NCBI GenBank assembly: GCA_964605355.1
Contig: CAZSCE010000001.1
Coordinates: 103-64,102 of the forward strand
Direction of reading: 5' to 3'
DNA from: an uncultured Candidatus Saccharibacteria bacterium
Lineage (GTDB): Bacteria > Patescibacteriota > Minisyncoccia > Phycocordibacterales > GWA1-40-21
Length of the DNA stretch: 64,000 nt
This document shows positions 4,052-55,748 of the stretch, in pieces; the stretch's first letter is position 1, and each line of letters opens with the position of its first letter. The notes beneath the pieces are model-generated. The model saw nothing but the letters and a program-made list of their open reading frames with translations, was not told the origin of the DNA and ran no database searches. The position numbers and the translations under genes are program-made.

Positions 4052-5084
4052 TTAAAACTTCAATATAATCATTTAAATTTTCCAAAATAATACCGGTACC
4101 TCTGGCAATTGCTGTTAATGGATCACTGGCAATATATACCGGGATTTTTAATTCTTCATTCAAAAGTACATCTAAACCACGAATCAAGGCTCCACCACCC
4201 ACTAAATATATACCTCTCTGCATAATATCAGAAACAATTTCCGGCGGGGTGGTCTCCAAAACTTCTTTTACTGTTTCTACTAGGGTGGCAATACTTTGAG
4301 CCATAGCTTCACGCACATCACCATCAGTAATAATTACCTCTCTTGGTAAACCAGTGACCAAATCACGGCCTTTGACGGAAACTTCCATACTTTGCTCCAG
4401 CATGACAGAACCAACATTTATTTTAATCTCTTCAGCGGTTTTTTCACCAATTAATATTTTAAATTCGCTTCTAATGTAAGTAATAATATCTGTGTTTAAT
4501 CTATCACCAGCAATACGCAGATTTTTTGACTTTACAATTCCACCAAGGGAAATGACGGCGATATCAGAGGTGCCACCGCCAATATCAATCACCATACTGC
4601 CCACCGGACTTTTTATAGGTAAGCGAATACCAATAGCGCCGGCCATTGGTTCCTCCACAATATATACCTCACGGGCACCAGCATTCCTGGTGGCATCACG
4701 CACCGCCCTTATCTCCACGTTTGTTACGCCCGAGGGAACGCCCACCACTACACGCGGGCCTAATGGTTTTGGTGACAGTTCCTCAGCTTTTTTAACCAAA
4801 TAAGCAATCATTTCCTCCGTCACTTCAAAATCAGAAATCACACCATCCACGAGCGGGCGAACAGCTACAATGTGCGGCGGAGTTCTACCCAGCATGGCTT
4901 TGGCTTGTGACCCAACGGCCACCACGCGCCCAGTCTTCTGATTCAAGGCCACCACAGATGGCTCATTTACCACAATACCTTTTCCAGCTAAATATACTAT
5001 AGTATTAGCTGTTCCCAGATCAATTCCGATATCGTTGGAAAAGCGTCTGTATATTTTTGCTTTTAATTTTTCAAAAAATTCCAT
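4014..5084 (-). CDS. mreB: actin-like rod-shape protein MreB
   Basis: IGIDLGTANTIVY...NEPSVVA...VIDIGGGTSDIAVISLGGIV...LVGGGALIRGLD are the actin-fold phosphate 1, phosphate 2 and adenosine motifs typical of MreB. Confidence 0.9.
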   Translation of the reverse strand: MEFFEKLKAKIYRRFSNDIGIDLGTANTIVYLAGKGIVVNEPSVVALNQKTGRVVAVGSQAKAMLGRTPPHIVAVRPLVDGVISDFEVTEEMIAYLVKKAEELSPKPLGPRVVVGVPSGVTNVEIRAVRDATRNAGAREVYIVEEPMAGAIGIRLPIKSPVGSMVIDIGGGTSDIAVISLGGIVKSKNLRIAGDRLNTDIITYIRSEFKILIGEKTAEEIKINVGSVMLEQSMEVSVKGRDLVTGLPREVIITDGDVREAMAQSIATLVETVKEVLETTPPEIVSDIMQRGIYLVGGGALIRGLDVLLNEELKIPVYIASDPLTAIARGTGIILENLNDYIEVLIENEDELPPKKQ

Positions 5085-6343
5085 AAATCCGTTTCATTAA
5101 GCATACTGACCTTACCGGTAGCTCTATCTTTCACTTCAAACTCGCCTTTCTCAATTGTTTTCTCGCTGATAATTATTCTAAGAGGGATACCCAGTAAATC
5201 AGCGTCCGCAAACTTTTCTCCGGCCCTAGCCTCCCTATCATCACACAATACCTCTATTCCCTTTTTTTGCAACTTTTTATAAATATCCTCTGTTGCTTCC
5301 TTGGCTTTATCACTATTACCAATATTTAATAAGTGAACAGCAAAAGGCGCAATAGACTTTGGCCAGACAATCCCCACTTCATCAGAAAGTAACTCAACAA
5401 CTGTACCCATTACTCGGCCAGGGCCAATACCATAGCAACCCATCACTACAGATTTCTTTTCACCTTTTTCATTAGGGTAAGTTAAATCTAAAGCATCAGA
5501 AAATTTTGTTCCCAGACTAAATATATTTCCAACCTCTATAGACTTTGCTTCACGCAATTTTTCATTTGCACATTCCGGGCACTTATTTTGTTCCTTGATT
5601 AACTCCTTATTTACGGCCACCAAACATTTATCACAAATATAGATTGTATCCTCACCAGCATCAGATAAGGTCTGAAACTCATGTGAATATTTACTAAAAC
5701 TACCGCCGGAAGCAAAAGTAATATAAGTGCGGTCACCTAGGCCAACACGCTCAAAAACTTTTTTATAAGCTACCTTAGACTTTTCATAAAATTTATCATG
5801 CTCCGCAATATCTTTAGAAAAAGAATATAAATCTTTCATCAGGAATTCTCGGCCACGCATAATACCACTTTTGGCCCTGGTCTCATTTCTAAACTTGGTT
5901 TGGATTTGATATGGATAAACGGGGAGATCTTTATAAGAACGGATATGATTTTTCATCAAAACCGTCAAAGGCTCCTCATGTGTGGCACCCAAACCTAACT
6001 CTGTATCATTTTTTAATTTAGTTTTAAACCAAACATCCATCACTTCATCACTCCAACGGTTAGACTTCTCCCAAGGAGTTTTATCCTGAAGCGCAGTTAG
6101 CTGAAGTTCCTGACCGCCAATAGCATCCATCTCCTCCCTGATGATTTTACAGATATTATTAAGCACTCGGAGACCTAATGGTAAATAGTCATAAACCCCG
6201 GCCATTTCCTTGTTAATAAAACCGCCTTTTATGAGTAATTGAGCGTTTTTGCTCACCTCATCCTTAGGCGCCTCCTTACGAGTCTTTGTTAAAAGTTTTG
6301 ATTGATACATACGCGTATAATAGCGTATTTTAGGAAAATCCAC
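5063..6343 (-). CDS. proS: prolyl-tRNA synthetase, short bacterial form without editing domain
   Basis: The N-terminal region QSKLLTKTRKEAPKDEVSKNAQLLIKGGFI and class II aaRS motifs match ProRS. A C-terminal CPEC...C zinc motif is present. It overlaps the mreB start by 22 nt. Confidence 0.85.
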   Translation of the reverse strand: MDFPKIRYYTRMYQSKLLTKTRKEAPKDEVSKNAQLLIKGGFINKEMAGVYDYLPLGLRVLNNICKIIREEMDAIGGQELQLTALQDKTPWEKSNRWSDEVMDVWFKTKLKNDTELGLGATHEEPLTVLMKNHIRSYKDLPVYPYQIQTKFRNETRAKSGIMRGREFLMKDLYSFSKDIAEHDKFYEKSKVAYKKVFERVGLGDRTYITFASGGSFSKYSHEFQTLSDAGEDTIYICDKCLVAVNKELIKEQNKCPECANEKLREAKSIEVGNIFSLGTKFSDALDLTYPNEKGEKKSVVMGCYGIGPGRVMGTVVELLSDEVGIVWPKSIAPFAVHLLNIGNSDKAKEATEDIYKKLQKKGIEVLCDDREARAGEKFADADLLGIPLRIIISEKTIEKGEFEVKDRATGKVSMLNETDLWNFLKN

Positions 6344-6346
6344 AAA

Positions 6347-7441
6347 TTAGAAAAACTTCAAAATATCACGATAGGTGATGATAACCATTAGTGAAATAAG
6401 TATAAAGAAACCAATAGCATTTGCCATATTAGCAACTTTGGGTTTGATTGGCTTTCTGATAATAGCTTCAATAATAATAAAGAACACTCGGCCACCATCT
6501 AGGGCGGGAAAAGGAATCAAATTTATCACCGCTAGGTTAAGAGAGATAAAAGCCACGAAACCAAGGAAGTAAGCAAAACCAAATGTGGCCGCATCACCCA
6601 CCATGCCCACAATTCCCACCGGACCGGAGACCTGAGAATAATCAGCGTGGCCCCGAATAGCCTGAGAAATAAAAGTTCCTAGACCTACAGCCACCTGCTT
6701 GAAGGTTACTACTGTTAATTTTCCACCTTCCCATAAGGCCAAGGCTGGATTTAATTTAACTACACCTACATTTTCCATATAAATACCAATCACTTTTCTA
6801 TTTTCCGTTAAGTTTAATTCTGGAATTGCTACTGTATTTTTTGTCTCGCCATTTCTCTCAAAAATAATATCAACTTTGTTATCCGCGCTAGCATTAACTA
6901 ACTCCCTAACTTTAGTAGTATTTAAATCCTGACCGGTAACCAAATCAACTGATATAAGTTTATCTCCCTGCTTTAAGCCGGCCTTATCCGCCCCTGAGCC
7001 TGGTAAAATGCCGGTAATTACTACCTGGCTATTTTTTATATATTTAGAATAATCTGACGCTCCCTCACCCACCGGCACCAAAGAGCCAAACATAAAAGAA
7101 ATAGAAATTAAAATCCAAGCAAAAATAATATTCATGGCCACGCCAGCAATCAAAACACAAACCTGTTTCCATTTCTTGGCATTAGTAAAACTACGGGCAC
7201 TATCAGCACCAGTCATACTTTCCTCATCGGGGTTCTCACCATGAATTTTTACATAACCACCAAAAGGAATTAAATTTAAAATATATTTTGTTTCCCCGCG
7301 CACCCAACTCAATATTTTAGGTGGAAAGCCAATAGCAAATTCATCTACCCGGATACCGCTCTTTTTGGCCACCACAAAATGCCCCAGTTCATGGACAAAA
7401 ATCAACACTGCTAAAACTACTAAAAATAATATTATGGTCAT
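6347..7441 (-). CDS. rseP: site-2 protease, RseP/M50 family zinc metalloprotease with PDZ domain
   Basis: HELGH zinc motif within the first TM helix, a PDZ-like segment (GILPGSGADKAGLKQGDKLISVD) and a C-terminal LDGG motif. Confidence 0.8.
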   Translation of the reverse strand: MTIILFLVVLAVLIFVHELGHFVVAKKSGIRVDEFAIGFPPKILSWVRGETKYILNLIPFGGYVKIHGENPDEESMTGADSARSFTNAKKWKQVCVLIAGVAMNIIFAWILISISFMFGSLVPVGEGASDYSKYIKNSQVVITGILPGSGADKAGLKQGDKLISVDLVTGQDLNTTKVRELVNASADNKVDIIFERNGETKNTVAIPELNLTENRKVIGIYMENVGVVKLNPALALWEGGKLTVVTFKQVAVGLGTFISQAIRGHADYSQVSGPVGIVGMVGDAATFGFAYFLGFVAFISLNLAVINLIPFPALDGGRVFFIIIEAIIRKPIKPKVANMANAIGFFILISLMVIITYRDILKFF

Positions 7442-7992
7442 TAGGCGGTTATTTCTTTTTGCTTTTTAACAAAGATTTCTTCTAGTGCTTTGTTGCCGGC
7501 ATCTACTAATTTTTGCATTTCTGTTTTGAAACGGAATTTATCATCTTCACCCATACCTCCCTCCTTTTCCTTAGTATCAATATCTTTCACCACCTCATCA
7601 CGCACACTGCGCAAGGTGATTTTAGCTTGCTCATGCTTTTCTTTGGCAATCTTGGTTAATAATTCTCGGCGCTCGCTGGTCAGATCAGGGAAAAATACGC
7701 GCACGCCTTTTTCATCTGTTTTTAGAGAAACACCTAGGTTAGCCACGGTGATGGCTTTTTCCACTGCCTTTACTTGTGAAGCATCCCACGGGGTGACCAG
7801 TAAAGATTTAGCATCAGCAATACTCACAGAACCCACCTGATTTAAAGGCATGCGCTGACCATAGCTTTCTACCTGAACAGCATCTAATAACTGTGGTGAA
7901 GCCATACCGGTCCTGATCCCGGTGTATTCCTTCTTCATCCATTCCTCAGTTTCCTTTATTTTACTATTTAGTTTTTTGAAATCGTATTGCAT
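7441..7992 (-). CDS. frr: ribosome recycling factor
   Basis: 183 aa with Frr-like sequence throughout (e.g. ...IRTGMASPQLLDAVQVESYGQRMPLNQVGSVSIADAKSLLVTPWD...). The size is typical of Frr. Confidence 0.9.
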   Translation of the reverse strand: MQYDFKKLNSKIKETEEWMKKEYTGIRTGMASPQLLDAVQVESYGQRMPLNQVGSVSIADAKSLLVTPWDASQVKAVEKAITVANLGVSLKTDEKGVRVFFPDLTSERRELLTKIAKEKHEQAKITLRSVRDEVVKDIDTKEKEGGMGEDDKFRFKTEMQKLVDAGNKALEEIFVKKQKEITA

Positions 7993-11286: not shown

Positions 11287-13218
11287 TTGTGCCAGTATAT
11301 AGGCCTGATGAAATTACTGAGCGTTATACCCATATCGCGAGGAATTAACAAGGAAAGCTTGTCATATTTTACCGGCTCAGACATTTCCGTGGGATCTGTG
11401 GTAAAAGTCCCCTTAAGGAAGAAAATCATCCCCGCTATCGTTATTTCTGCTGAAGATGTGGCTGATGTAAAAGCCGAGATTAAAAATGCCAGTTTTGAAA
11501 CTCGCAAAGTAGAAAAAATAAAGTCCTCCACCTTATTATCAAAAGAATTTATGGCCGCTGTTTCTGAGACCGCAGTATTTTTTGCCAGCACTTCCGGCAG
11601 TGTATTACATTCTGTTGTGCCCAAAACCATTATTGAGGAAGCGGATAAAATTAAATGTAGTATCCGTGAATTAAAAGGCCAGCGCATCCACGAGAAATTA
11701 GTAATTCAATGTGATGACGAGGAAAGATATGCTACCTATAAAAGTTTGATCCGCGAGGAATTTGCCAAAGGCTACTCCGTTTTTTTCTGCTTACCCACTA
11801 TTCAGGATATTAAAAAAGCACTTGAAAAATTATCCAAAGGGATAGAGCAATATACTTTTGTTCTTCACAGCCTATTATCCCAAAAAGAACAACTGGAGCT
11901 TTGGAACAAGGCGGCCAATGAGGAACACCCATCCCTAATTATTTGTACCGGCTCATTTTTAGGTATCCCCAGAAATGATATTGGCACCATAATTGTGGAC
12001 AAAGAAAATACCCGTTCCTATAAAAGCCAAAGCCGGCCTTTTGTGGATATGAGAAACTTTGCAGAAACCCTGGCGGAAAAAATTAAGGCTAAAATAGTTT
12101 TTGGAGATTTACTTTTGCGGACAGAAACAATTTATCGACACACGGAAGCGGAGATATTTGAAGTGGCGCCTTTGAAATTCCGTTCCCTCACTACGGCAAA
12201 TTTAAAGTTAATAAATATGCGGGAAACTTTACCAGGGAATATTGAAACCGGTAAGGAAGGTAAAGAACCAAAATTTAAATTATTTAGTGATGATTTATTA
12301 AACTTGATTAAAGATAATCAGCTAAATGATGAAAACTTGTTTATTTTTGTGGCCAGACGAGGGCTTTTCCCCTCTACCGTTTGTGCGGATTGTGGCAGCC
12401 TCATCCGCTGTAATTCCTGTGGCGCGCCCACCGTTTTACACAAGGCACCAAGTGAGAACTTTTTCCTTTGCCACCGTTGTGGTGAACACCGCAGTGCCAT
12501 GGAAAAGTGTAATAATTGCCAGAGCTGGAGACTATCCACTTTTGGTATTGGGATAGAGGCGGTAGAGGAAGAATTAAAAGAAAGGTTTCCCAATATCAAA
12601 ATATTTAAGGTTGATTCTGATAGCGCCAGCACTCATAAAAAGGCCCTGGACACTATGGCTAAATTTTATGCTTCCCCCGGTAGTATATTACTGGGCACGG
12701 AAATGGCCTTATTATATTTAAAAGACTCGGTAGCTAATACTGCTGTGGTTTCTATTGATTCATTTTTCTCCATCCCAGACTTTAGGGTAAATGAAAAAGT
12801 AATGAATATATTATTAAAGATTCGCGCCGCTTCATCTAGAAACTTTTTAGTGCAAACCCGTGATATAGAACAAAAAATATTAAAGTATGCGCTGGCGGGA
12901 AACTTGGCAGACTTTTACCGTGATGAGATCAAAGAAAGAACCAGCCTGGCTTACCCACCTTTTTCTATACCAATAAAAATAACCCTGCAGGGTGACAAAA
13001 AAACCGTTTTGGCCGGCATGGAGAATTTACAAAAAGAGATGGCCCCATTTGAGGTGGATATTTTCCCCGCCTTTATCCCCATCCAGAAGGGCAAATTCAG
13101 TATGCACGGATTAATAAAAGTTAAACAGGGTGAATGGGTGGATCAGGAATTATTAAATAAGCTGAATTCCCTTTCCCCAAGCTTTACTGTGAATGTTGAC
13201 CCCGAGAGTCTTTTGTAA
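11287..13218 (+). CDS. priA: primosomal protein N' (PriA)-like, with degenerate helicase ATP-binding motifs
   Basis: The PriA N-terminal 3'-DNA-binding region, the Cys-rich zinc region (CADCGSLIRCNSCGAPTVLH...CHRCGEH...CNNCQSW) and the C-terminal domain are all present. The Walker A position reads QCDDEERYATYKS instead of GxxGSGKTEVY, and the DEEH box reads DKEN. Confidence 0.8.
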   Translation: MCQYIGLMKLLSVIPISRGINKESLSYFTGSDISVGSVVKVPLRKKIIPAIVISAEDVADVKAEIKNASFETRKVEKIKSSTLLSKEFMAAVSETAVFFASTSGSVLHSVVPKTIIEEADKIKCSIRELKGQRIHEKLVIQCDDEERYATYKSLIREEFAKGYSVFFCLPTIQDIKKALEKLSKGIEQYTFVLHSLLSQKEQLELWNKAANEEHPSLIICTGSFLGIPRNDIGTIIVDKENTRSYKSQSRPFVDMRNFAETLAEKIKAKIVFGDLLLRTETIYRHTEAEIFEVAPLKFRSLTTANLKLINMRETLPGNIETGKEGKEPKFKLFSDDLLNLIKDNQLNDENLFIFVARRGLFPSTVCADCGSLIRCNSCGAPTVLHKAPSENFFLCHRCGEHRSAMEKCNNCQSWRLSTFGIGIEAVEEELKERFPNIKIFKVDSDSASTHKKALDTMAKFYASPGSILLGTEMALLYLKDSVANTAVVSIDSFFSIPDFRVNEKVMNILLKIRAASSRNFLVQTRDIEQKILKYALAGNLADFYRDEIKERTSLAYPPFSIPIKITLQGDKKTVLAGMENLQKEMAPFEVDIFPAFIPIQKGKFSMHGLIKVKQGEWVDQELLNKLNSLSPSFTVNVDPESLL

Positions 13219-24210: not shown

Positions 24211-24283
24211 GGCCCTATCGTCTATCGGTTAGGACGGAGCCTTCTCAAGGCTCAAAGCGCGGTTCGATTCCGCGTAGGGTCAC
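24211..24283 (+). tRNA. tRNA-Glu (anticodon CTC)
   Basis: Manual cloverleaf: acceptor GGCCCTA/TAGGGTC, U8, D-arm GTCT-ATCGGTTA-GGAC, anticodon arm GAGCC-TTCTCAA-GGCTC (anticodon CTC at 34-36, U33, A37), a 4-nt variable loop, T-arm CGCGG-TTCGATT-CCGCG and discriminator A. CCA is not encoded. Confidence 0.75.
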
Positions 24284-24384
24284 AGATTTGTTAAGCCTTA
24301 TTTCATAAGCATTTTTTAGTGACGCTATTGGGGACAATGGAACACTTTTTTCTGTGGTATTTTTATGATAGAATGTACCCAATG

Positions 24385-47646: not shown

Positions 47647-48396
47647 ATGCTACCAATAATTCTTTCATCCCTGGTTATAATGCTGGCTTCCTTGATTGGG
47701 GTGATTTCTGTTTGGAAAAATCTGGGGCAAATTATTGAGAGAAATTTACACTTTTTAGTCAGTTTCTCGGCTGGGGTCTTTCTTTATATTTCCTATGAAT
47801 TATGTCTGGAAACTATTCACGAGGCTCCCACAATTCAGAACGGTTTCTTATGGATTCTGGTTGGTATTTTTGGAGTCTGGTTAATTTTTAAATTACTCCC
47901 CACTTTTCACCACCATCATGACAATGAAACAGAGATTCACGTTCACTCTCAGATTGATGCCCGAAAAATATTGATTAGTGATGGTTTACACAATATTGGT
48001 GATGGTATTTTACTAGTCACATCTTTTACTGTCAGCTTGACCCTGGGTATGGTGGCCACCTTAAGTATTTTTGTTCATGAAATAATCCAAGAAATCTCAG
48101 AATTTTTTGTTCTTCGCGGGGCTGGTTATTCTGTGAGGAAGGCTCTTATTACCAGCTTTGCTATTTCCAGCACCATTTTGATTGGCTCTGTTGGTGGTTT
48201 ATTTTTATTAGACAATTTTAAAGTATTTGAAATCCCCCTCCTGGGCCTAGCCGCTGGTTCATTTTTAATGGTGGTTATCCAAGATCTCATCCCCCATTCT
48301 ATAAAAGTTTCCACCAGCCGCGCCCACATTATAAAACACCTTGCCTGGTTTTTAGCCGGCCTATTAATTATGATAGGGCTGAGTACTATTAGTTAG
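47647..48396 (+). CDS. zupT: ZIP-family metal transporter (ZupT-like)
   Basis: TM protein with a His-rich loop (HHHHDNETEIHVH) and the ZIP signatures LHNIGDGIL and VHEIIQEISEF. Confidence 0.75.
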   Translation: MLPIILSSLVIMLASLIGVISVWKNLGQIIERNLHFLVSFSAGVFLYISYELCLETIHEAPTIQNGFLWILVGIFGVWLIFKLLPTFHHHHDNETEIHVHSQIDARKILISDGLHNIGDGILLVTSFTVSLTLGMVATLSIFVHEIIQEISEFFVLRGAGYSVRKALITSFAISSTILIGSVGGLFLLDNFKVFEIPLLGLAAGSFLMVVIQDLIPHSIKVSTSRAHIIKHLAWFLAGLLIMIGLSTIS

Positions 48397-48436
48397 TTAA
48401 TAAAATTCACAGAATAATATGATTTTGGAGACGTAA

Positions 48437-48642
48437 AATTAAACGTAACCAGAATACAGTGCTAGAGGAGGCTTGGGAGCGCGACGGCGCGAGTTGAGAT
48501 TTGGGGAGGGACCCAAATGAAAGACCTTGAATGTTTTGTATTCAAAATGTGAAAGGTGTACTGTCCCTGTAAGGGACGAGGAATTTTTTAGCAAAAAAAT
48601 ATCCGTGCTCCGGTTAGTACTGTATTCTGGTTACGTTTAATT
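48437..48642. mobile_element. MITE-like element: 24-bp perfect terminal inverted repeats around a roughly 158-bp G+C-richer core
   Basis: AATTAAACGTAACCAGAATACAGT (48437..48460) is the exact reverse complement of 48619..48642. The core contains internal hairpins (GTCCC-tgtaa-GGGAC). The element touches the stop codon of the adjacent gene. Confidence 0.55.
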
Positions 48643-49299
48643 ACAGTAAAGGTACGACTCTGGGATTTCTTTTAGAATTTGGGCGGGCATTTCCGTTAAA
48701 GGTAAATCTTCATTTTGAAGTTTAATAATTATTTCCTTTTTAGATTCCCCAAAAGCAAAAGTGTAAGCCACAGTAATATTCTTTATTGTTTTTAAAGTGA
48801 GAGTAATGCGCCTAAACTTTCCACCATCATAACCACTAGCGGTAGCTTGATCTTTGACCCCCACGGTACCAGGCAAAACCCCGGCTGTATGCCCATCAGT
48901 GCCCAGACCAAACTGCCCTACCACCACCTCGGCCCAAGCTGTCAGATCCCGATATTTCTTGCCAAAATAGATTACTGTTTCCTTTAATTCCAAATCATTT
49001 AAAACCGGCACTGCCTGCACAGCGTCAAAATCAAAACCTGCCTCCCCCAGCTGCTGCCAATTTGAATCAGCGTGGCCCACGGGACCATGGCGCTCATCAG
49101 TGAGAGTCACCGCTAAAATATTTTTCAATTTACCGCCAAAATCTTTTTTTAATTTTTCTAAAACCTCCACTTCAATATTTATATTTGACCCACCAGAAAG
49201 TAACCACAACACATTTTTATTTCCCTTTAAATATTTCCCTATCCCCTCTACCAATATTTTCACCCCCTCCACCTCCCCTTTTATTTTTATAAATTCCAT
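48637..49299 (-). CDS. 6-phosphogluconolactonase-like (NagB/Pgl sugar-phosphate isomerase fold)
   Basis: GLGTDGHTAGVLPG matches the 6-phosphogluconolactonase G(M/L)GxDGHxASlFP box. 220 aa. Confidence 0.65.
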   Translation of the reverse strand: MEFIKIKGEVEGVKILVEGIGKYLKGNKNVLWLLSGGSNINIEVEVLEKLKKDFGGKLKNILAVTLTDERHGPVGHADSNWQQLGEAGFDFDAVQAVPVLNDLELKETVIYFGKKYRDLTAWAEVVVGQFGLGTDGHTAGVLPGTVGVKDQATASGYDGGKFRRITLTLKTIKNITVAYTFAFGESKKEIIIKLQNEDLPLTEMPAQILKEIPESYLYCN

Positions 49300-49315
49300 C
49301 TCACTATCTTAGCAC

Positions 49316-49360
49316 AAAAAAAGAGCGCTATCCCCACACCGGTGTGTGAAAATAGCGCTC
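49316..49360 (-). terminator. intrinsic terminator GAGCGCTAT-loop-ATAGCGCTC plus a 7-U tail (minus strand), the 3' boundary of the high-G+C island
   Basis: 9-bp stem with an internal CACACCGGTGTG palindrome and an A7 run on the plus strand. Confidence 0.7.
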
Positions 49361-49389
49361 CGTGTTGTCATAAAGAACTCCTCGTTAAC

Positions 49390-50571
49390 TCACAGAAGAG
49401 AAAGAATCAGCTCGCCCATTTCTGATGTATGCAAGAGGCTAGAACCTTTGCTGTAAACCAGTGTCAGGTTCGGATCACCACCAACATACATATCCCCCGT
49501 CCGATAGCCCTGCTTCAGAGCCTCACGAACTGCTTCCTCAATGGCTTTTGCGCCCTTCACCGCACCCAAATGCCGGAGCATCATGGCCGCCGTGAGAATG
49601 CGCCCCAGCGGATTAGTTTTGTTCTGCCCAGCCAATGTCGGAGCCGTCCCCGCACCGCTTTCAAACATCGCTGCGCCCGTGTCCGGATTGATGGCCGAAC
49701 TGCACATCATCCCCATACTGCCAAGTGCCGCCGCTGCTCCATCCGAGAGGATGTCCCCGTGCTCATTTCCACAAGCAATGACGCCGTGGAGTTTGGCCGG
49801 AGTGAACAACAGTGCATTCGCCGAGTCTACCAACTGGTGCTGGAGTGGCACGTCCGGGAATTCCGTCCTCCCGATTCTCGTGACAATCTTGCGCCAAAAG
49901 TCATACCGCGCCATCACGTTTGCCTTGTCGATGGAGATGAGAGGCAAGCCCACATCTCTCGCGTAAGTAAACGCCGCCCGGATATACTTCTCAATTGTTT
50001 CCCGGCGATAGTAGGCGATGTCAGAGACGAGCCTCTCGTCACCCGTCACACACTTCTTCAACCTGACGCCGATCCGTTCACAACCATCGCTTGGTATAAG
50101 TGACATCAGATCCTCGTTCCCGAAGTAGCTGTCCTCCAGGAGGAAGCGAATCCAAACCTGGGTGATGCCCTCGGCCGGAATTGTTTCCGGTCTGACGTTG
50201 GCCAAATGCGCCAGCTCCTTGTAGTAGATCATGGGGCGGAAGTTGAGCAACAACCCCATGTCTTTACGCAGTTTCAGCAAACACCTTGACTCCGGCTTCA
50301 TCTCCGGCTTCTCCTTGCCGATGGTGTCGTCCCACTTGGGATCACCCACGCCACCGAAGAAGATTGTGCCGATTTCAACCGCTCTTTTCAGAGACGCTTC
50401 CGGCCGTGTGTCGCCAAACTTTTCGTAGGCGCTCCACCCCATCGGAGTCTTTTCAAAAGCGATCTGGATGTTGTCCTTCTCAGCGGCCTTGATGGCAACA
50501 GCACAAGCCACCGCCATCATCTCCGGACCAGAGCCATCTCCAGTCACCAGAGCAACTGTTTTTTTTATCAT
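49390..50571 (-). CDS. 3-isopropylmalate/isocitrate/homoisocitrate dehydrogenase family enzyme
   Basis: LVTGDGSGPEMM (the GDGIGPEV box) and NEHGDILSDGAAAALGSMGMMCSSAI (the IMDH/IDH signature N-x-x-GD-I-x-SD). High G+C composition. Confidence 0.8.
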   Translation of the reverse strand: MIKKTVALVTGDGSGPEMMAVACAVAIKAAEKDNIQIAFEKTPMGWSAYEKFGDTRPEASLKRAVEIGTIFFGGVGDPKWDDTIGKEKPEMKPESRCLLKLRKDMGLLLNFRPMIYYKELAHLANVRPETIPAEGITQVWIRFLLEDSYFGNEDLMSLIPSDGCERIGVRLKKCVTGDERLVSDIAYYRRETIEKYIRAAFTYARDVGLPLISIDKANVMARYDFWRKIVTRIGRTEFPDVPLQHQLVDSANALLFTPAKLHGVIACGNEHGDILSDGAAAALGSMGMMCSSAINPDTGAAMFESGAGTAPTLAGQNKTNPLGRILTAAMMLRHLGAVKGAKAIEEAVREALKQGYRTGDMYVGGDPNLTLVYSKGSSLLHTSEMGELILSLL

Positions 50572-50645
50572 TTCGCGTTTCCTTTCTTGAGCTGTAACCC
50601 GTGGGCTGATTTTTCATGTCAACCCACGGGTTCATCTTGTTTCGC

Positions 50646-52637
50646 TTACTTCAGCAGTCCTGCTCCCTGCAGTTCCGCCGCCATCTTCACCATTACGCCG
50701 ACGCTTCCGCCGTTACGAATGAGGTCCTTCTGGTATACTGAATGATTGAAAGAAACCCCCTTCAAGCCAACACAGTTGCCAGAGCAACTAGTACTCGGGT
50801 CCATCTCCCAACCTATTGTGCCTTTCTCCCAATCAACACTAATCACTTCAGGCTTCTCGGCGAAGATAGAAGCGATTGTCTCTTTTGGAAGCGTAATGCA
50901 CAACAGTCCGTTGGCAAACATGTTGTTCTCAAAGATGCGAGCAAAGCTCGGTGCAATGACGCACCGAATACCCGCACCCTCGAGTGCCCAAGGCGCATGT
51001 TCACGAGATGAACCGCAACCAAAGTTCTCACCCGCTACCAGTATCTGTGACCCAAAGAGCTTGGGCCAGTCCGCCGACGAAATCGGCGCATCCTCGAGAC
51101 AGTGTTGGCCAAAAGCCTTCTTGTCTGTCTCGGTCAAATACTTGGCCGGAATGATCTGATCAGTATCTACGTTGGCCACCGGCAGGTAAAACACCTTACC
51201 GGAAAAATCCTTCGTCTCCCCCACTCCGAAGAGCTCGAGAAGCTGGCCGTAGTCCGGCCGTTGTGAAGGAACTTCTTTCCAACCCGTGATGCTGGTCAAT
51301 TTCGGAACCGACATCAAACTCACTTCGCGCGCGACCAATCGACAAGTATCTTCAGTTGCCTCTGATACCACTCCGTTGATAGCAGTTTTCGCCGCCGTCG
51401 CCGGTGATGCCAGATGCACCATACCATCCTTGCCCATGCGTCCCGGGAAATTGCGATTCGTCGTCGAAACGCAAACTTCTCCTGGAGCAATCACCCCACA
51501 ACTCATTCCCAGGCAGGCACCGCAAGTGGGACCGCTCACGAAACACCCCGCGTTAGCGAAGATTCCAAACAGCCCTTCCTCAAGTGCCATCTCCCAGATA
51601 TGCTGAGTGGCTGGAACTACAATGCAACGAATATTGTCTGCCACCGGGCGCCCCATCAAACGAAAGATTGTTGCGGCAATCCGCAAATCTTCCAACCGTC
51701 CGTTCGTGCAAGAGCCGATGTAGACCTGGTCAACTTTCTTGCCGGCCAAGTCACTCACCTTCTTCACACAACCTGGTGAATACTCGTCAGTGATGACAGG
51801 AACCATGTCCGAGGCATCAATCTCGATCACCTGATCGTAGACCGCATCCGGATCACTATTCCAGTAGTCGCCCATAAGATAATTCCCAACCTCGAGATTC
51901 TCATGAACTAGGCGCCGGTATCCCGACCCAAGATAATCCATGGTGGTTTGATCCACCATCATCATCCCGGACGTTGCACCTGCTTCCACCGCCATGTTGG
52001 TGATGGTCATCCGCGCTTCCATACTCATCTCATCAATGACTGGGCCACCAAATTCCAACACCGCGTTGGTGGCGCCCTTCACACCAATCTTGCTGATCAG
52101 CGTGAGGATGAGATCTTTGGCGTAAACATTCGCTGGCAATGCGCCGGTGAAGTTCACCCGAATGACTTTCTGAGGTGGACAGATCCAGAGACCGGTTATG
52201 ATGCCGTTCTCCACTTCTGTCGTACCGACACCCGCCGTCAAAGCACAAAAAGCGCCGTGCGTGCAGGTGTGGCTGTCACCCATGATTCCGATCTGGCCCG
52301 GTTTGATCCAGCCCTTCTCAGGAATGACGGCGTGACAAACGCCGTTGCGACCGACGTCCAAAAACTCGATCCCGTGTTCCCGGCTCCAGTTGCGGACAAT
52401 CTGACCTTGAAGGGCCGAAGCCGTATCCTTGGCCGGATTGACGTGATCAATCATGGTCTTGACCTTGTTCGGGTCAAAAACCACATCGCACCCGCGAATC
52501 TTGGCGTCCAGGATAGCGTTTGGTGTCGTAATCTCATGACCCCAAACCCAATCCAGCTGAAGAACCATCCGGCCATCCGGCAAGGTCTTCACACAATGTG
52601 TATCCACGATTTTCTGAAACGCTGTCTTTCCGTTCAT
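50646..52637 (-). CDS. fused aconitase-family dehydratase (LeuC-like large plus LeuD-like small subunit)
   Basis: GVCHAVIPEKG, IGSCTNGRLEDL and the C-terminal GENFGCGSSREHAPWAL. 663 aa, matching the sum of the two subunits. High G+C composition. Confidence 0.8.
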   Translation of the reverse strand: MNGKTAFQKIVDTHCVKTLPDGRMVLQLDWVWGHEITTPNAILDAKIRGCDVVFDPNKVKTMIDHVNPAKDTASALQGQIVRNWSREHGIEFLDVGRNGVCHAVIPEKGWIKPGQIGIMGDSHTCTHGAFCALTAGVGTTEVENGIITGLWICPPQKVIRVNFTGALPANVYAKDLILTLISKIGVKGATNAVLEFGGPVIDEMSMEARMTITNMAVEAGATSGMMMVDQTTMDYLGSGYRRLVHENLEVGNYLMGDYWNSDPDAVYDQVIEIDASDMVPVITDEYSPGCVKKVSDLAGKKVDQVYIGSCTNGRLEDLRIAATIFRLMGRPVADNIRCIVVPATQHIWEMALEEGLFGIFANAGCFVSGPTCGACLGMSCGVIAPGEVCVSTTNRNFPGRMGKDGMVHLASPATAAKTAINGVVSEATEDTCRLVAREVSLMSVPKLTSITGWKEVPSQRPDYGQLLELFGVGETKDFSGKVFYLPVANVDTDQIIPAKYLTETDKKAFGQHCLEDAPISSADWPKLFGSQILVAGENFGCGSSREHAPWALEGAGIRCVIAPSFARIFENNMFANGLLCITLPKETIASIFAEKPEVISVDWEKGTIGWEMDPSTSCSGNCVGLKGVSFNHSVYQKDLIRNGGSVGVMVKMAAELQGAGLLK

Positions 52638-52765
52638 CTTTCTACCCTATCCTTTCTTTTCTATTTTGGCCTATAAGGCCGATGTTAACGTACAAAAAAT
52701 CCGGGTAATCCCCAGATAAACAATCTGAATAAACATTAACACAAAATTTTGTAGTTAGTCAACAT

Positions 52766-52794
52766 AAAAGCCCGACTTGTGGTCGGGCTTTTAT
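52766..52794. terminator. intrinsic terminator AAAGCCCGAC-ttgtg-GTCGGGCTTT, the 5' boundary of the high-G+C island
   Basis: Perfect 10-bp stem with A-run and T-run flanks. Confidence 0.7.
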
Positions 52795-52801
52795 TATTAA
52801 A

Positions 52802-52936
52802 TTATTTCTTTCCTTTCTTTGGACCTTTCTTGGTGGCCTTGGCGGCGAGACGAACGAATTTGGCGGCCAAACGCTTCTTGGTTTTACGAGAACGGGAAGT
52901 TTTATTTTTAATATCTTGAGCTGCTCTTTTTGCCAT
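52802..52936 (-). CDS. 44-aa lysine-rich basic peptide (MAKRAAQDIKNKTSRSRKTKKRLAAKFVRLAAKATKKGPKKGKK), hypothetical
   Basis: Below the 60-aa track cutoff. It lies between the RGG/zinc-ribbon gene and the terminator, behind a 7-bp hairpin (GCAGAAG-attac-CTTCTGC). The RBS is weak. Confidence 0.3.
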   Translation of the reverse strand: MAKRAAQDIKNKTSRSRKTKKRLAAKFVRLAAKATKKGPKKGKK

Positions 52937-52998: not shown

Positions 52999-53544
52999 TT
53001 ATTTCTTTTTGGAAACCTTCTTGGCAACTTTTTTAACTGGAGCGGCTTTGGCTACAGGGGTAGCTTTTACCACTTCCTTAACTTCTACTACTGGCTTATT
53101 TCCGGCGCTCATCTTTTCAATCACGCTGGTTAGTCTGTCAATCTTAACGTTCAAGACTTCTATTTGTTTCTTGATTTCCTCACCGCTGACTTTCTTTACA
53201 TCATTACCAAAATCAGTTCTTGGCGGAGTTTTGTAATCACCAAAAGATTTCTTTTGGAAACCACCACGATCACCCCCTCTATCACCCCCGCCCATTTCCT
53301 TTTTGCCACCAAAACAAGCACTACAGTAAACTGGCTTACCAGCAGTTGGTAAAAAAGGCACCTCACAAGGCTTTTTACATTCATCACAAATCACTTTGTG
53401 CATGGTCACTGGGCCACGGTCAGAACGGAAACCACCACCTCTGTTACCACCACCAAAAGGACCACCGCGGGCCTTGAAACCTCCACCGTGACCACCATGG
53501 CCACCACCAAATCTACTTCCGCCACCTTGTCTAAATTCTCCCAT
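52999..53544 (-). CDS. Gly/Arg-rich (RGG) protein with a CxxC-x17-CxxC zinc ribbon and a Lys/Ala-rich C-terminal tail
   Basis: CDECKKPCEVPFLPTAGKPVYCSAC has exact C-x2-C-x17-C-x2-C spacing. It is flanked by GGGHGGHGGGF/RGG repeats and ends AKAAPVKKVAKKVSKKK. Confidence 0.6.
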   Translation of the reverse strand: MGEFRQGGGSRFGGGHGGHGGGFKARGGPFGGGNRGGGFRSDRGPVTMHKVICDECKKPCEVPFLPTAGKPVYCSACFGGKKEMGGGDRGGDRGGFQKKSFGDYKTPPRTDFGNDVKKVSGEEIKKQIEVLNVKIDRLTSVIEKMSAGNKPVVEVKEVVKATPVAKAAPVKKVAKKVSKKK

Positions 53545-53967: not shown

Positions 53968-54843
53968 TTAATTTAATTTAAAATAATCAAAAAGGGCTTT
54001 AATACCCGCTAAATTTTTCTCCCACTCCACGGTCTCATGCGTAGAGAGCTCTACTGTGATGGTGGGAATATTTATAGAGGCCAGCCAATCACCAGCATCA
54101 CCAGTGATAACATAGCTGTTAAACGTCCTGGCCTTGGCATATCCCGCCGCTGTGGAATATATATCCATAATATTATTTGTTTCAGCTAAAACCCCCGCCT
54201 GACATTCCGAAGCATAAATAGTATTTGACATGCTATGCCAAAAAATTACAGCTTTGGGTTTGTTATTTAAAACAAAATCCCGAATGGACCTAGCCTCTGG
54301 CTCGGAAAAAACTGTTTTCCCCGCGCTCACAATATTTGTTTTCCAAGTACTAGTAGCTTGCCATTTACAATCAAAATTTCTATTCAAGTCTACTTTGTTT
54401 CCATTAAACCGACCGGTACCATTTGGCAAATCCGTCTTTACATCCGCCAAAACAAACCGCCCTTCTTTACCGGTCACCTGATATAAACCATCGGGATTAG
54501 CAGAGGGAATAACGGTCACCGCCATATTTTCCGGAATCATTTCTGGATTAGCTTTTAAATAATCCATAAATTTATAAGCGAGCATCACACTGTTCCACTC
54601 ATAACCACCATGAATACCCCCCACAAAAAGTAACGGCTCTTTACCCTGTCCATAAGTATAGGCTTCTATTTTACGCCCCTGGGTAGAAGTGCCAACAATT
54701 TCATATTTTGGCCCCGTCTCCACTACTGGCGCTGTAATAATTATTGGCGCTGACTTATAGAAGAATGAATAATAAATCACTCCACCCAAACCAAATAGAA
54801 TAACTATAAAAATAATTATTTTCTTCAGAGAATATTCCCGCAT
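53968..54843 (-). CDS. M14-family zinc carboxypeptidase (murein-peptide/gamma-D-Glu-DAP peptidase-like), membrane-anchored, paralog 2
   Basis: GGIHGGYEWNS (zinc His/Glu), DLNRNFDC (the substrate-binding NR of the NRNW box), FWHSMSN (third zinc His) and TVELSTHE (catalytic Glu). Confidence 0.7.
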   Translation of the reverse strand: MREYSLKKIIIFIVILFGLGGVIYYSFFYKSAPIIITAPVVETGPKYEIVGTSTQGRKIEAYTYGQGKEPLLFVGGIHGGYEWNSVMLAYKFMDYLKANPEMIPENMAVTVIPSANPDGLYQVTGKEGRFVLADVKTDLPNGTGRFNGNKVDLNRNFDCKWQATSTWKTNIVSAGKTVFSEPEARSIRDFVLNNKPKAVIFWHSMSNTIYASECQAGVLAETNNIMDIYSTAAGYAKARTFNSYVITGDAGDWLASINIPTITVELSTHETVEWEKNLAGIKALFDYFKLN

Positions 54844-55748
54844 TATTTAGTATAATATTTAATGATAGCAGTAATACCGGCCTGATTTTTGCTCCAGTCA
54901 GTATCAGTATGATTTGTCAAAAGAATGCTAATAGCGGGCACATTTATTTTAGCTAACCAATTTGTCAGATCTCCGGTAGTGGCATAATCATTGAAGGCGG
55001 AATATGAAGGATAAGCAGAAGCTTTGGCATAAGCCGTATTCATAGCCTTGGTCTCAGTGGAAATACCATTATTACAACTAGAAGAATATACCCCGCCAGC
55101 CGAGGCATAATAAGCAATAACCGCTTTTGGCTTACTGGTTTCAATATAATTCTTTACAGCTAAACTTTCTGATTCAGAAAAGGCCGCTGTACCGCCACTT
55201 ACAGTTTTGCTCTGCCACATGCCAGTTGATTTCCAATCACAATCAAAGTTTCTGTTTAAATCCACCTCATTAGCATTAAAACGTCCGGCCACAGATAAAG
55301 CTTGTGAAGAGGAAACATCAGAACTTTTAAAGCGCCCTTCAACATCCACCACTTTATTTAAACCATCCGGATTCAAAACTGGAATAATAGTTACTTTTAC
55401 ATTAGTAGGAATAACACTTGGATTAGCTTTTAAATAATCCATGGCACTATAAGCCATCAAAGTTGTGTTCCAAGCATAACCACCATGAATACCAGCCACT
55501 AATAATATTTCATCAGCTCCGGTACCATAGTGATAGGCAGTGATATCCTTACCATCTACTGACTTTCCAACCACGGTTTCTACTTTATTAACCGGCGTAG
55601 TGGTGGCGGTAGTGGTGGCCTGATTTTTCAAAAGCTCGGCTGCTTTTTGCTCATTAGTTAAGGTAACAGTCTTTGAAGAATTAATATAATAATAAATACC
55701 AAGGATAATAAGTAAGGCTACAATAATCCAAACAATTGTTTTCTTCAT
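54843..55748 (-). CDS. M14-family zinc carboxypeptidase, membrane-anchored, paralog 1
   Basis: AGIHGGYAWNT, DLNRNFDC, AYYASAGG and ILLTNHTD are the same motif set as in 53968..54843. A tandem duplicate. Confidence 0.7.
   Translation of the reverse strand: MKKTIVWIIVALLIILGIYYYINSSKTVTLTNEQKAAELLKNQATTTATTTPVNKVETVVGKSVDGKDITAYHYGTGADEILLVAGIHGGYAWNTTLMAYSAMDYLKANPSVIPTNVKVTIIPVLNPDGLNKVVDVEGRFKSSDVSSSQALSVAGRFNANEVDLNRNFDCDWKSTGMWQSKTVSGGTAAFSESESLAVKNYIETSKPKAVIAYYASAGGVYSSSCNNGISTETKAMNTAYAKASAYPSYSAFNDYATTGDLTNWLAKINVPAISILLTNHTDTDWSKNQAGITAIIKYYTK

Follow-up and report, generated by a model that had tools for sequence, protein, structure and literature searches.

A G+C-rich cassette for a fused LeuC-LeuD hydro-lyase and a divergent LeuB-like dehydrogenase, probably exchanged among AT-rich Patescibacteria

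Within a 64,000-nucleotide stretch of DNA from an uncultured Candidatus Saccharibacteria bacterium (NCBI GenBank assembly GCA_964605355.1, contig CAZSCE010000001.1; hereafter the window), a G+C-rich island on the minus strand encodes two adjacent enzymes, a fused LeuC-LeuD-type hydro-lyase and a LeuB-like dehydrogenase. The explanation that we prefer, with a probability of roughly 0.65, is that this is a leucine-type middle-step pair that stands as an orphan in the window's clade and has been exchanged among AT-rich Patescibacteria. The two proteins are best explained as a Patescibacteria-specific lineage of isomerase and dehydrogenase, which most probably performs the middle steps of leucine-type 2-oxoacid chain elongation. 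They probably lie in a self-contained transcription unit, a cassette of ~3.45 kb running from promoter to terminator (52765-49316, minus strand). The features of the cassette and its upstream border are as follows:

52764-52794, minus strand: upstream terminator, 13-nt arms, 100% complementary
52733..52762, minus strand: promoter-like element at the far left end of the cassette, read from the sequence
52635..52762, minus strand: conserved 5' leader (putative promoter, hairpin 1 with U-run, hairpin 2, ribosome-binding site), delimited by covariance model R1
52693..52717, minus strand: leader hairpin 1, ATCTGGGGATTACCCGGAT followed by T6, from a terminator scan
52668..52680, minus strand: leader hairpin 2, GGCCTTATAGGCC, just 5' of the ribosome-binding site
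50646..52637, minus strand: fused LeuC-LeuD (aconitase-superfamily) hydro-lyase, 663 aa, assigned by domain and family models
50596..50632, minus strand: intercistronic G+C-rich hairpin, 14-nt arms, 93% complementary
49390..50571, minus strand: divergent LeuB-like beta-decarboxylating dehydrogenase, 393 aa, with an Iso_dh domain
49316..49361, minus strand: intrinsic terminator forming the right cassette end, 18-bp stem (49361-49322) followed by T7

In the proposed reaction sequence, the [4Fe-4S] hydro-lyase would isomerize a 2-alkylmalate (2-isopropylmalate or (R)-citramalate) to the 3-alkylmalate, which the dehydrogenase would oxidize and decarboxylate to 4-methyl-2-oxopentanoate or 2-oxobutyrate, reducing NAD(P)+. 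GC-moderate Patescibacteria carry the pair within a complete leu/ilv cluster at host composition, and the cassette would have been exchanged, or its alleles replaced, between AT-rich Patescibacteria, leaving the G+C island. The identity and family of the enzymes, their conservation, the cassette limits, the composition and the sequence relationships are shown by the data below; what we infer is which substrate is used, which way the transfer went, that the leader regulates, and a remaining pathway elsewhere in the genome. What is new is the fused architecture, the divergent LeuB lineage, the base-precise unit with its structured leader and the orphan state; the kinds of enzyme themselves are known.

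The two coding regions (49390-52637) have a G+C content of 53.8%, against 38.7% in the remainder of the window (z = 9.7), where other 3.25-kb stretches reach at most 41.8%. In 1-kb steps the window ranges from 32 to 44% G+C, except for 48-54% at 49-53 kb, and at 200-nt resolution the upstream gene's start codon marks the climb in G+C content and the downstream terminator its fall. The tetranucleotide distance between the island and the remainder of the window is 0.565, ~3 times that of other stretches (0.171 ± 0.019). This shift lies mainly at synonymous sites, the G+C content at third codon positions (GC3) being 0.605 and 0.660 in the island genes versus 0.29-0.40 in six neighbouring genes. 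An earlier reading made from the sequence alone (the sequence-only reading) had described a jump above 50% G+C between two terminators, long spurious antisense open reading frames (ORFs) and a palindrome between the genes. The island is real, as are antisense ORFs of 89-242 aa and both terminators (49361-49322 and 52794-52764), but the background is 38.7% and not the ~35% given then, and the palindrome occupies 50596-50632, offset by eight bases from the position given (50604-50640).

The limits of the unit are visible in comparisons with other loci carrying relatives of the cassette genes (labelled L001, L005, L040 and so on). DNA homology of the window with L005 and L001 begins at 52765/52762 and ends at 49319/49316, and the flanks of these two loci are otherwise unrelated to it. 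The left end falls directly past the terminator of the upstream gene, 0-3 nt ahead of an invariant TTGAC. That terminator (52794-52764) belongs to a small upstream ORF (52802-52936, 44 aa, basic), outside the island. In L005, the DNA that follows the cassette is similar to sequence lying downstream of the tRNA-Glu gene in the window (24280-24345).

The 663-aa protein matches the Pfam domains Aconitase (PF00330, 2.2e-105, residues 8-422) and Aconitase_C (PF00694, 1.8e-23, residues 529-585), and scores above the subfamily cut-offs of PRK00402 (485 vs 385) and TIGR01343 (443.6 vs 385.7). It stays below those of the methanogen homoaconitases (HacA_Meth, 355 vs 550; HacB_Meth, 92 vs 230) and far below those of the fused small aconitases (PRK07229, 337.4 vs 612; TIGR01342, 276.2 vs 719.15). 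Its best solved relative is the large subunit of the M. jannaschii isopropylmalate/citramalate isomerase (4kp1, 1.8e-95), the small subunit of the same enzyme and bacterial LeuD being the others. The Fe-S cysteine motifs GSCTNGR and PTCGACLG, together with GCGSSRE, align with solved isopropylmalate isomerases (IPMI) and are kept in nearly all 21 Patescibacteria copies. The small-subunit loop of these enzymes has been described as governing substrate specificity (PMC7308503). In the 663-aa protein this recognition loop reads YLTET, in orphan and cluster-embedded copies alike, and it is YLVYT in the M. jannaschii IPMI and YLRTT in homoaconitase. A homoaconitase-type Arg, which we take to be that of YLRT in the M. 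jannaschii homoaconitase (HACN), was not found in the YLTET loop. Fused LeuCD-like proteins (P0122-P0164), tried as aconitase loop references, were uninformative, as none of them scored above the aconitase cut-offs. By these likenesses the 663-aa protein is most probably a 3-isopropylmalate/(R)-citramalate isomerase.

The unfused IPMI of the PRK00402/TIGR01343 type (M. jannaschii 4kp1 and 3vba; Spirochaetes, Geobacteraceae, Desulfobacterales, Clostridium) share the domains, the Fe-S cysteines and GSSRE with the fused protein, whose large-subunit part is 46-56% identical to bacterial unfused LeuC. They consist of two subunits, whereas the fused protein is one chain of 663 aa with a variable linker of ~60 aa; in the nearest outsiders the two parts are separate genes of 426-431 aa and 174-178 aa. 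The fused small 'aconitases' (PRK07229, TIGR01342) have the same LeuC-like to LeuD-like order and a length of ~650 aa, but the 663-aa protein scores far below their cut-offs. Fungal Leu1-type fused isopropylmalate isomerases likewise have this order and ~650 aa. Because the nearest relatives are unfused bacterial LeuCD, the fusion looks independent.

The 393-aa protein carries the Pfam domain Iso_dh (PF00180, 7.3e-86). Its 32 best solved relatives are all isopropylmalate dehydrogenases (IPMDH; 1e-56 to 1e-48, the best at 1.5e-56), the first isocitrate dehydrogenase (IDH) appearing at 3e-30, and the best IDH model gives 128 bits against a cut-off of 509. The three substrate Arg residues, the catalytic Tyr and Lys and the metal-binding Asp residues are kept, the motifs LRK, FRP, IR..SYFG, DKANV, LVD and GDILSD aligning with solved IPMDH. 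In IPMDH, a Glu..Leu-Leu before the first Arg forms the hydrophobic pocket for the isopropyl group, where IDH has Ser..Asn. This pocket is retained, PESRCLLKLRK aligning with PE-KGLLGIRK of 3u1h. The protein thus has fold family, substrate, metal and pocket residues in common with LeuB (TIGR00169; PDB 1v53, 3u1h and T. thermophilus 1hex), and it departs from LeuB in its insertions (~20-25 residues in total after the YFG motif), odd motifs, sub-cut-off score and solitary copies on large contigs. Domains and family scores therefore bear out the enzyme identities given by the sequence-only reading, a fused LeuC/LeuD-type hydro-lyase and a dehydrogenase of the isopropylmalate/isocitrate family, as well as their pairing for isomerization and oxidative decarboxylation. 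Of the pathways that it had listed, the leucine/citramalate type is favoured; the tricarboxylic acid (TCA) cycle, lysine and coenzyme B are not.

Both genes are widespread in the phylum, the pair being present on dozens of Patescibacteria contigs at 59-83% identity. For each gene the databases hold more than 120 relatives (64-82% identity), and the few that carry a name come from Pacebacteria, Parcubacteria, Nealsonbacteria, Taylorbacteria and the 'Patescibacteria group'. Among species-representative genomes, 20 loci of Patescibacteria type were detected (59-82% identity), after which the next matches were unfused LeuC and LeuD of a Clostridium, Spirochaetes, Desulfobacterales and Geobacteraceae (46-56%); ~40 further loci came from a metagenome scan. 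The dehydrogenase directly follows the fused gene in nearly all loci. Clustering of neighbouring ORFs in 22 loci returned these two as the sole recurrent genes, with no conserved third gene (synthase, aminotransferase or integrase).

In six loci the orthologous pair lies amid leuA, ilvE, ilvD, ilvB and a threonine-synthase-like gene (L013, L020 and L021 from genomes; L063, L065 and L066 from metagenomes). The LeuA of L013 exceeds the cut-off of the equivalog NF002086 (771 bits vs 532). No second LeuB was found in these six clusters, so the divergent dehydrogenase occupies the LeuB position, and in L011 a canonical LeuB follows the fused gene instead (PRK03437, 522 bits vs a cut-off of 393). 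Because of these complete clusters and this swap, isopropylmalate isomerase plus dehydrogenase is the best-supported chemistry; the aconitase/IDH, lysine and coenzyme-B readings are unlikely. A dehydrogenase of another type stands beside the fused gene in L017, L070, L083 and L089.

The six cluster-embedded copies are all on basal branches, with 61-69% identity to those of the window. As far as the neighbouring genes indicate, the pair is an orphan cassette in the window's clade and part of a complete leu/ilv cluster with host composition in the basal clade. The orphan pair is under purifying selection (dN 0.14-0.17 and dS ~1.0, nonsynonymous and synonymous divergence between the window and L040). 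In a comparison over the best 120 relatives of one LeuA type, which is suggestive but weak evidence, ~27 close Patescibacteria-like relatives of the L013 LeuA stood against more than 120 copies of the pair among the matches listed. None of the close LeuA relatives among these matches lay on a contig equal in length to one that carries an orphan pair, the complete Nealsonbacteria genome of 639,534 bp with L008 (CP179888.1) being among those compared. Searches of the literature on Patescibacteria or the candidate phyla radiation with isopropylmalate, leuB, leucine or branched-chain amino acids found nothing on this pair, and one on Nealsonbacteria and leucine found nothing relevant.

Some of these loci hold features of their own. 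The leu/ilv clusters of L013 (6090-7928), L020 (7675-9537) and L021 (13313-15163) encode a 612-620-aa protein with a threonine-synthase-like pyridoxal-phosphate domain (PRK08197, 316 bits vs 303) and a C-terminal match to the LeuA regulatory domain, which may be an amino-acid-regulated substitute for threonine dehydratase. Four LeuA relatives that are 75-79% identical to that of L013 (P0418, P0419, P0424 and P0477) have 381-392 aa and lack the regulatory domain PF08502. Between the fused gene and the dehydrogenase of L020, an ORF of ~140 aa flanked by G-rich inverted repeats has been inserted (11996-12469), which resembles a small selfish insertion. In L003, a segment of ~3 kb without called genes (4750-7750) immediately precedes the fused gene; it has 41-55% G+C in a locus otherwise of 30% G+C, and is probably an rRNA gene.

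Upstream of the fused gene, the cassette begins with a promoter-like element consisting of a -35 sequence TTGACT (52762-52757), an 18-nt spacer and a -10-like TAATGT (52738-52733). TTGAC is invariant in 14 aligned leaders, and a TAATGT-like -10 comes 17-18 nt later, which suggests promoter function. Because the predicted -10 matches the consensus at three of six positions, the element was not listed by a simple consensus scan. Covariance model R1 scores 102.7 bits at the window leader (E = 2.7e-17) and matches 21 loci (E < 0.01), each time immediately 5' of the fused gene, with no other match at E < 0.01 in 935 kb. Both partners vary in each of the 10 base pairs, and the paired fraction of cells is 96.4% versus 76.9% in shuffles, in an alignment that was fitted to model R1; compensatory changes are also visible in the raw sequences. 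No Rfam 15 family, T-boxes, amino-acid leaders and riboswitches included, matched the leader at the gathering score, two tRNAs being the sole matches in the window, and a permissive scan of 52560-52830 gave sub-threshold, terminator-like matches alone.

Hairpin 1 starts ~10 nt past the predicted transcription start and is terminator- or attenuator-like. Its stem has 6-7 bp across loci and is followed by a U-run, with compensatory changes in L001, L005, L006, L007, L009, L040, L049, L053 and L055. A hairpin and U-run so near the predicted start suggest an attenuator or possibly a 5' stabilizer. A GTTCGTTAACAACGG-like conserved stretch separates it from hairpin 2, whose stem covaries among loci (GGCC/GGCC, GACTC/GAGTC, GGCTC/GAGCC, GGTTC/GAACC). 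A leader peptide for attenuation was rejected, as the short ORF of the window leader is not conserved in L005. The intercistronic hairpin (-26.6 kcal/mol, z = -4.6) has no T-run after it; six other loci (L005, L006, L007, L009, L010 and L012) also have a hairpin at this position, of different sequence. At the right end, L005, L001 and L040 retain the terminator hairpin (-32.8 kcal/mol, z = -4.1) through compensatory base changes, and beyond its T-run the homology ends. The structured leader, previously undescribed, is a candidate new attenuator-type leader RNA.

We then considered how the island acquired its composition. In 18 of 21 loci the fused gene has a higher GC3 than the mean of its flanks, the largest difference being 0.37 (L016), and the excess is ~0 where the full leu/ilv cluster is present or the host itself has ~47-50% G+C. 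Neighbour joining groups the high-excess copies in a derived clade, with the basal branches at host composition. Two independent, related assemblies, L040 (ENA) and L053 (JGI), have the cassette at the same locus as the window, in a shared order of zinc-finger gene, small ORF, cassette, LexA-like gene, PAP2 and ClpB, with the same GC3 excess and AT-rich flanks. The sequence-only reading had called the island a striking import; the foreign composition stands, but a recurrent cassette of the phylum that occupies the same locus in L040 and L053 is not a private import.

Identity was also scored at four-fold degenerate sites of conserved codons, for which the random expectation is ~0.27. Between the window and L040 it is 0.58-0.60 for the cassette genes versus 0.30-0.31 for ClpB, dCMP deaminase and PAP2. 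For the fused gene of the window it is 0.63 with L005, 0.58 with L040, 0.56 with L001, 0.52 with L006 and 0.49 with L007, and host genes in the same pairs give 0.28-0.39 (PyrG 0.36 for L001; MraW 0.39 and Mur ligase 0.37 for L007; ClpB 0.30). Overall, the cassette gives 0.45-0.63 where flanking genes are saturated at ~0.30. Distant copies of the fused gene are saturated at these sites (0.28-0.30), which means that synonymous sites are not universally constrained. For the three syntenic genomes (the window, L040 and L053), the fused-gene tree and the dehydrogenase tree conflict with each other and with the flanking genes, and the non-syntenic L005 and L001 are nearer to the window copy than the syntenic L053. 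Repeated horizontal exchange or allele replacement among Patescibacteria is favoured by the GC3 excess, the four-fold-site identity, the tree conflict and the identical ends in unrelated contexts. The donors would be lineages of ~48-50% G+C; L006, L037 and L038 carry their copies at native composition (GC3 0.55-0.6).

Several findings weigh against this reading, on the side of both function and transfer. The 663-aa protein falls under the LeuC and LeuD equivalog cut-offs (TIGR02083, 393.7 vs 610.65; TIGR00170, 306.1 vs 560.25; TIGR00171, 109.5 vs 116.25), and the 393-aa protein under those of LeuB (TIGR00169, its best NCBIfam model, 246.7 bits vs 353.2; PRK03437, 158.8 vs 393). The dehydrogenase has the unusual motifs RFLLEDSYFG (RELTGGxYFG in LeuB) and NEHGDILSD (N-x-F-GDILSD in LeuB), and in AGTAPTLAG a Thr, conserved in the family, replaces the NAD-selecting Asp of the LeuB motif GSAPDIAG, so that the cofactor preference could be for NAD or NADP. 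It occurs alone, without the fused isomerase, on contigs of 3.26 Mb (L037, 10001-11221) and 1.09 Mb (L038, 10001-11161). At 72-74% identity and with a composition like that of their hosts (~48% G+C), these two dehydrogenases represent possible donor-like lineages or evidence for a stand-alone role of the dehydrogenase. Conversely, the fused gene lacks the divergent dehydrogenase in L001 and L016; in L001 (9957-10086) the latter has been deleted, its last ~7 codons and the terminator remaining after an intact fused gene. As the sequence-only reading had stated, no synthase partner is present in the island: tblastn with LeuA, IlvE, IlvD and IlvB of related loci found nothing in the 64-kb window, and no leuA, cimA, ilvE, ilvD or ilvB was found in the window or in the 8-10 kb flanking the pair at ~25 loci from its own clade (identity of 69% or more), which leaves the proposed substrates with no visible source. 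The synonymous divergence of the cassette is below that of the flanks in all three syntenic pairs, and a slower synonymous rate in the cassette genes, instead of transfer, could also explain it. Finally, as no integrase, transposase or flanking repeats were found, the transfer mechanism is left with no candidate element.

A rival explanation is vertical inheritance within Patescibacteria without horizontal transfer, with the high G+C content and low synonymous divergence produced by selection or by a biased process acting on codons or mRNA structure. We consider this improbable. It would account for the shared locus of the window, L040 and L053, for the GC3 excess in 18 of 21 loci, and for the four-fold-site identities of 0.45-0.60 versus 0.29-0.36 (ClpB and other flanks) in the three comparisons, where one rate effect is simpler than three transfers. 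However, the copies in leu/ilv clusters have no GC3 excess, the saturation of distant copies argues against a general synonymous constraint, the same unit with the same ends recurs in the unrelated contexts of L005 and L001, the two gene trees conflict with each other and with synteny, and no further gene of the window attains the composition of the island. The compositional jump is also the sole support for an assembly chimera, contamination or a recent archaeal or actinobacterial import, which are effectively refuted. The chimera that the sequence-only reading had raised is contradicted by the same arrangement with syntenic AT-rich flanks in the two independent assemblies, and the junctions fall exactly between the upstream terminator and the promoter, and past the terminator. 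The archaeal (HACN or AksDE-F) or actinobacterial donors that it had suggested do not hold either, since the close relatives are all of Patescibacteria type, the outsiders are unfused LeuC and LeuD at 46-56%, and archaeal IPMI and HACN models score below the general family model.

As to function, a stand-alone catabolic or salvage role seems rather unlikely, though it fits part of the distribution. The pair could, for example, hydrate maleate or citraconate and then oxidatively decarboxylate D-malate or 3-methylmalate to pyruvate or 2-oxobutyrate, or complete a pathway split between the cell and its host, which would provide the 2-alkylmalate. LeuB is known to be promiscuous on D-malate, and LeuCD-like maleate hydratases are known. 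An autonomous unit that spreads to genomes without nearby leu/ilv genes and remains there under purifying selection would agree with such a role, as would the scarcity of L013-type LeuA relatives relative to the pair. Yet orphan and cluster copies do not differ in their active-site and loop residues, with no change of specificity visible, and the absence of the other genes covers flanks of 8-10 kb and not whole genomes. Much less probable is a miniature aconitase plus isocitrate dehydrogenase, a stand-alone module that would convert citrate taken up by the cell to 2-oxoglutarate and yield NAD(P)H. Citrate, unlike isopropylmalate, is a common metabolite, and the pair usually has no synthase beside it. 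Fused LeuC/LeuD-like proteins of ~650 aa are moreover annotated as aconitases in some lineages (PRK07229 and TIGR01342; a remark in PMC11237513). Against this, the scores for these two models (337 vs 612 and 276 vs 719) and for the IDH models are far under the cut-offs, among the solved relatives of the dehydrogenase, IPMDH lead by 26 orders of magnitude in E-value, its Glu..Leu-Leu is that of IPMDH, the YLTET loop lacks the Arg of the homoaconitase YLRTT, and orthologues lie in leu/ilv clusters.

With exchange among Patescibacteria as the preferred reading, the cassette resembles small genomic islets and 'selfish operon' transfers in its foreign composition, its same ends in varied contexts, the conflict of trees with synteny and, in some genomes, its adjacency to tRNA genes. 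It differs from genomic islets and integrative elements in being one transcription unit with no integrase, transposase, direct repeats or attachment site, and in that donors and recipients apparently belong to one phylum. Of the marks of an integrative element, deviant composition and the same unit in different contexts were found, and an integrase, repeats and insertion at a tRNA gene were not. Flanking direct or inverted repeats amounted to short chance-level matches alone; one 23-nt, 74% match joins the leader hairpin and the terminator. No tRNA gene lies beside the cassette in the window. tRNA genes abut the pair in L006 (9442-9789 and 13787-13860), L014 (9813-9887 and 13371-14281) and L016 (12193-12265); L014 has an inverted dehydrogenase, and its pair lies within a tRNA cluster. 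Since the window encodes DprA, natural transformation is a conceivable, if speculative, route. More tentatively, and doubtfully, a promoter-to-terminator leuCD-leuB cassette with a structured leader might circulate among AT-rich Patescibacteria and work without synthase or aminotransferase, in a stand-alone role on host-derived 2-alkylmalate or another hydroxy- or unsaturated dicarboxylate, moving without an element-encoded recombinase, for example by natural transformation and recombination at intergenic terminator regions.

The other genes of the window are typical housekeeping genes, including those for tRNA synthetases, penicillin-binding proteins, Mur ligase, UvrB, DnaB, CTP synthase, TGT, ClpB and DprA. 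The very basic 44-aa ORF upstream of the cassette (52802-52936, minus strand), which has its own terminator, is conserved beside the cassette in L040 and also has a match in L043. Upstream of it, a Gly/Arg-rich zinc-finger protein with a CxxC-x17-CxxC pattern (52999-53544, minus strand) is kept beside the cassette in L040 and L053. Further on, two adjacent paralogous ORFs of ~290-300 aa (53968-55748, minus strand) have signal-anchor-like N-termini and the motifs GIHGGYxWN and DLNRNFDC, which suggests secreted zinc carboxypeptidase-like proteins. Directly downstream of the cassette, the content of 47660-49300 varies between the syntenic genomes and looks like a second variable spot. The window has there a 6-phosphogluconolactonase-like gene (48637-49299), where G+C rises locally to ~0.5, together with one variant of a ZIP transporter. 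In L040 and L053 the segment holds a gene of the metallo-beta-lactamase fold and a ZIP gene with no tblastn match in the window.

Patescibacteria are seen as minimal symbionts that scavenge amino acids, and a fragment of the leucine pathway that is widespread, under purifying selection and apparently exchanged, mostly without a visible first or last step, runs counter to this view. Either the remaining steps are hidden in these genomes, or intermediates are shared with hosts, or the enzymes have another substrate. With base-precise limits, foreign composition and no mobility gene, the cassette also offers a clean case for gene flow within the phylum and for base-composition change.

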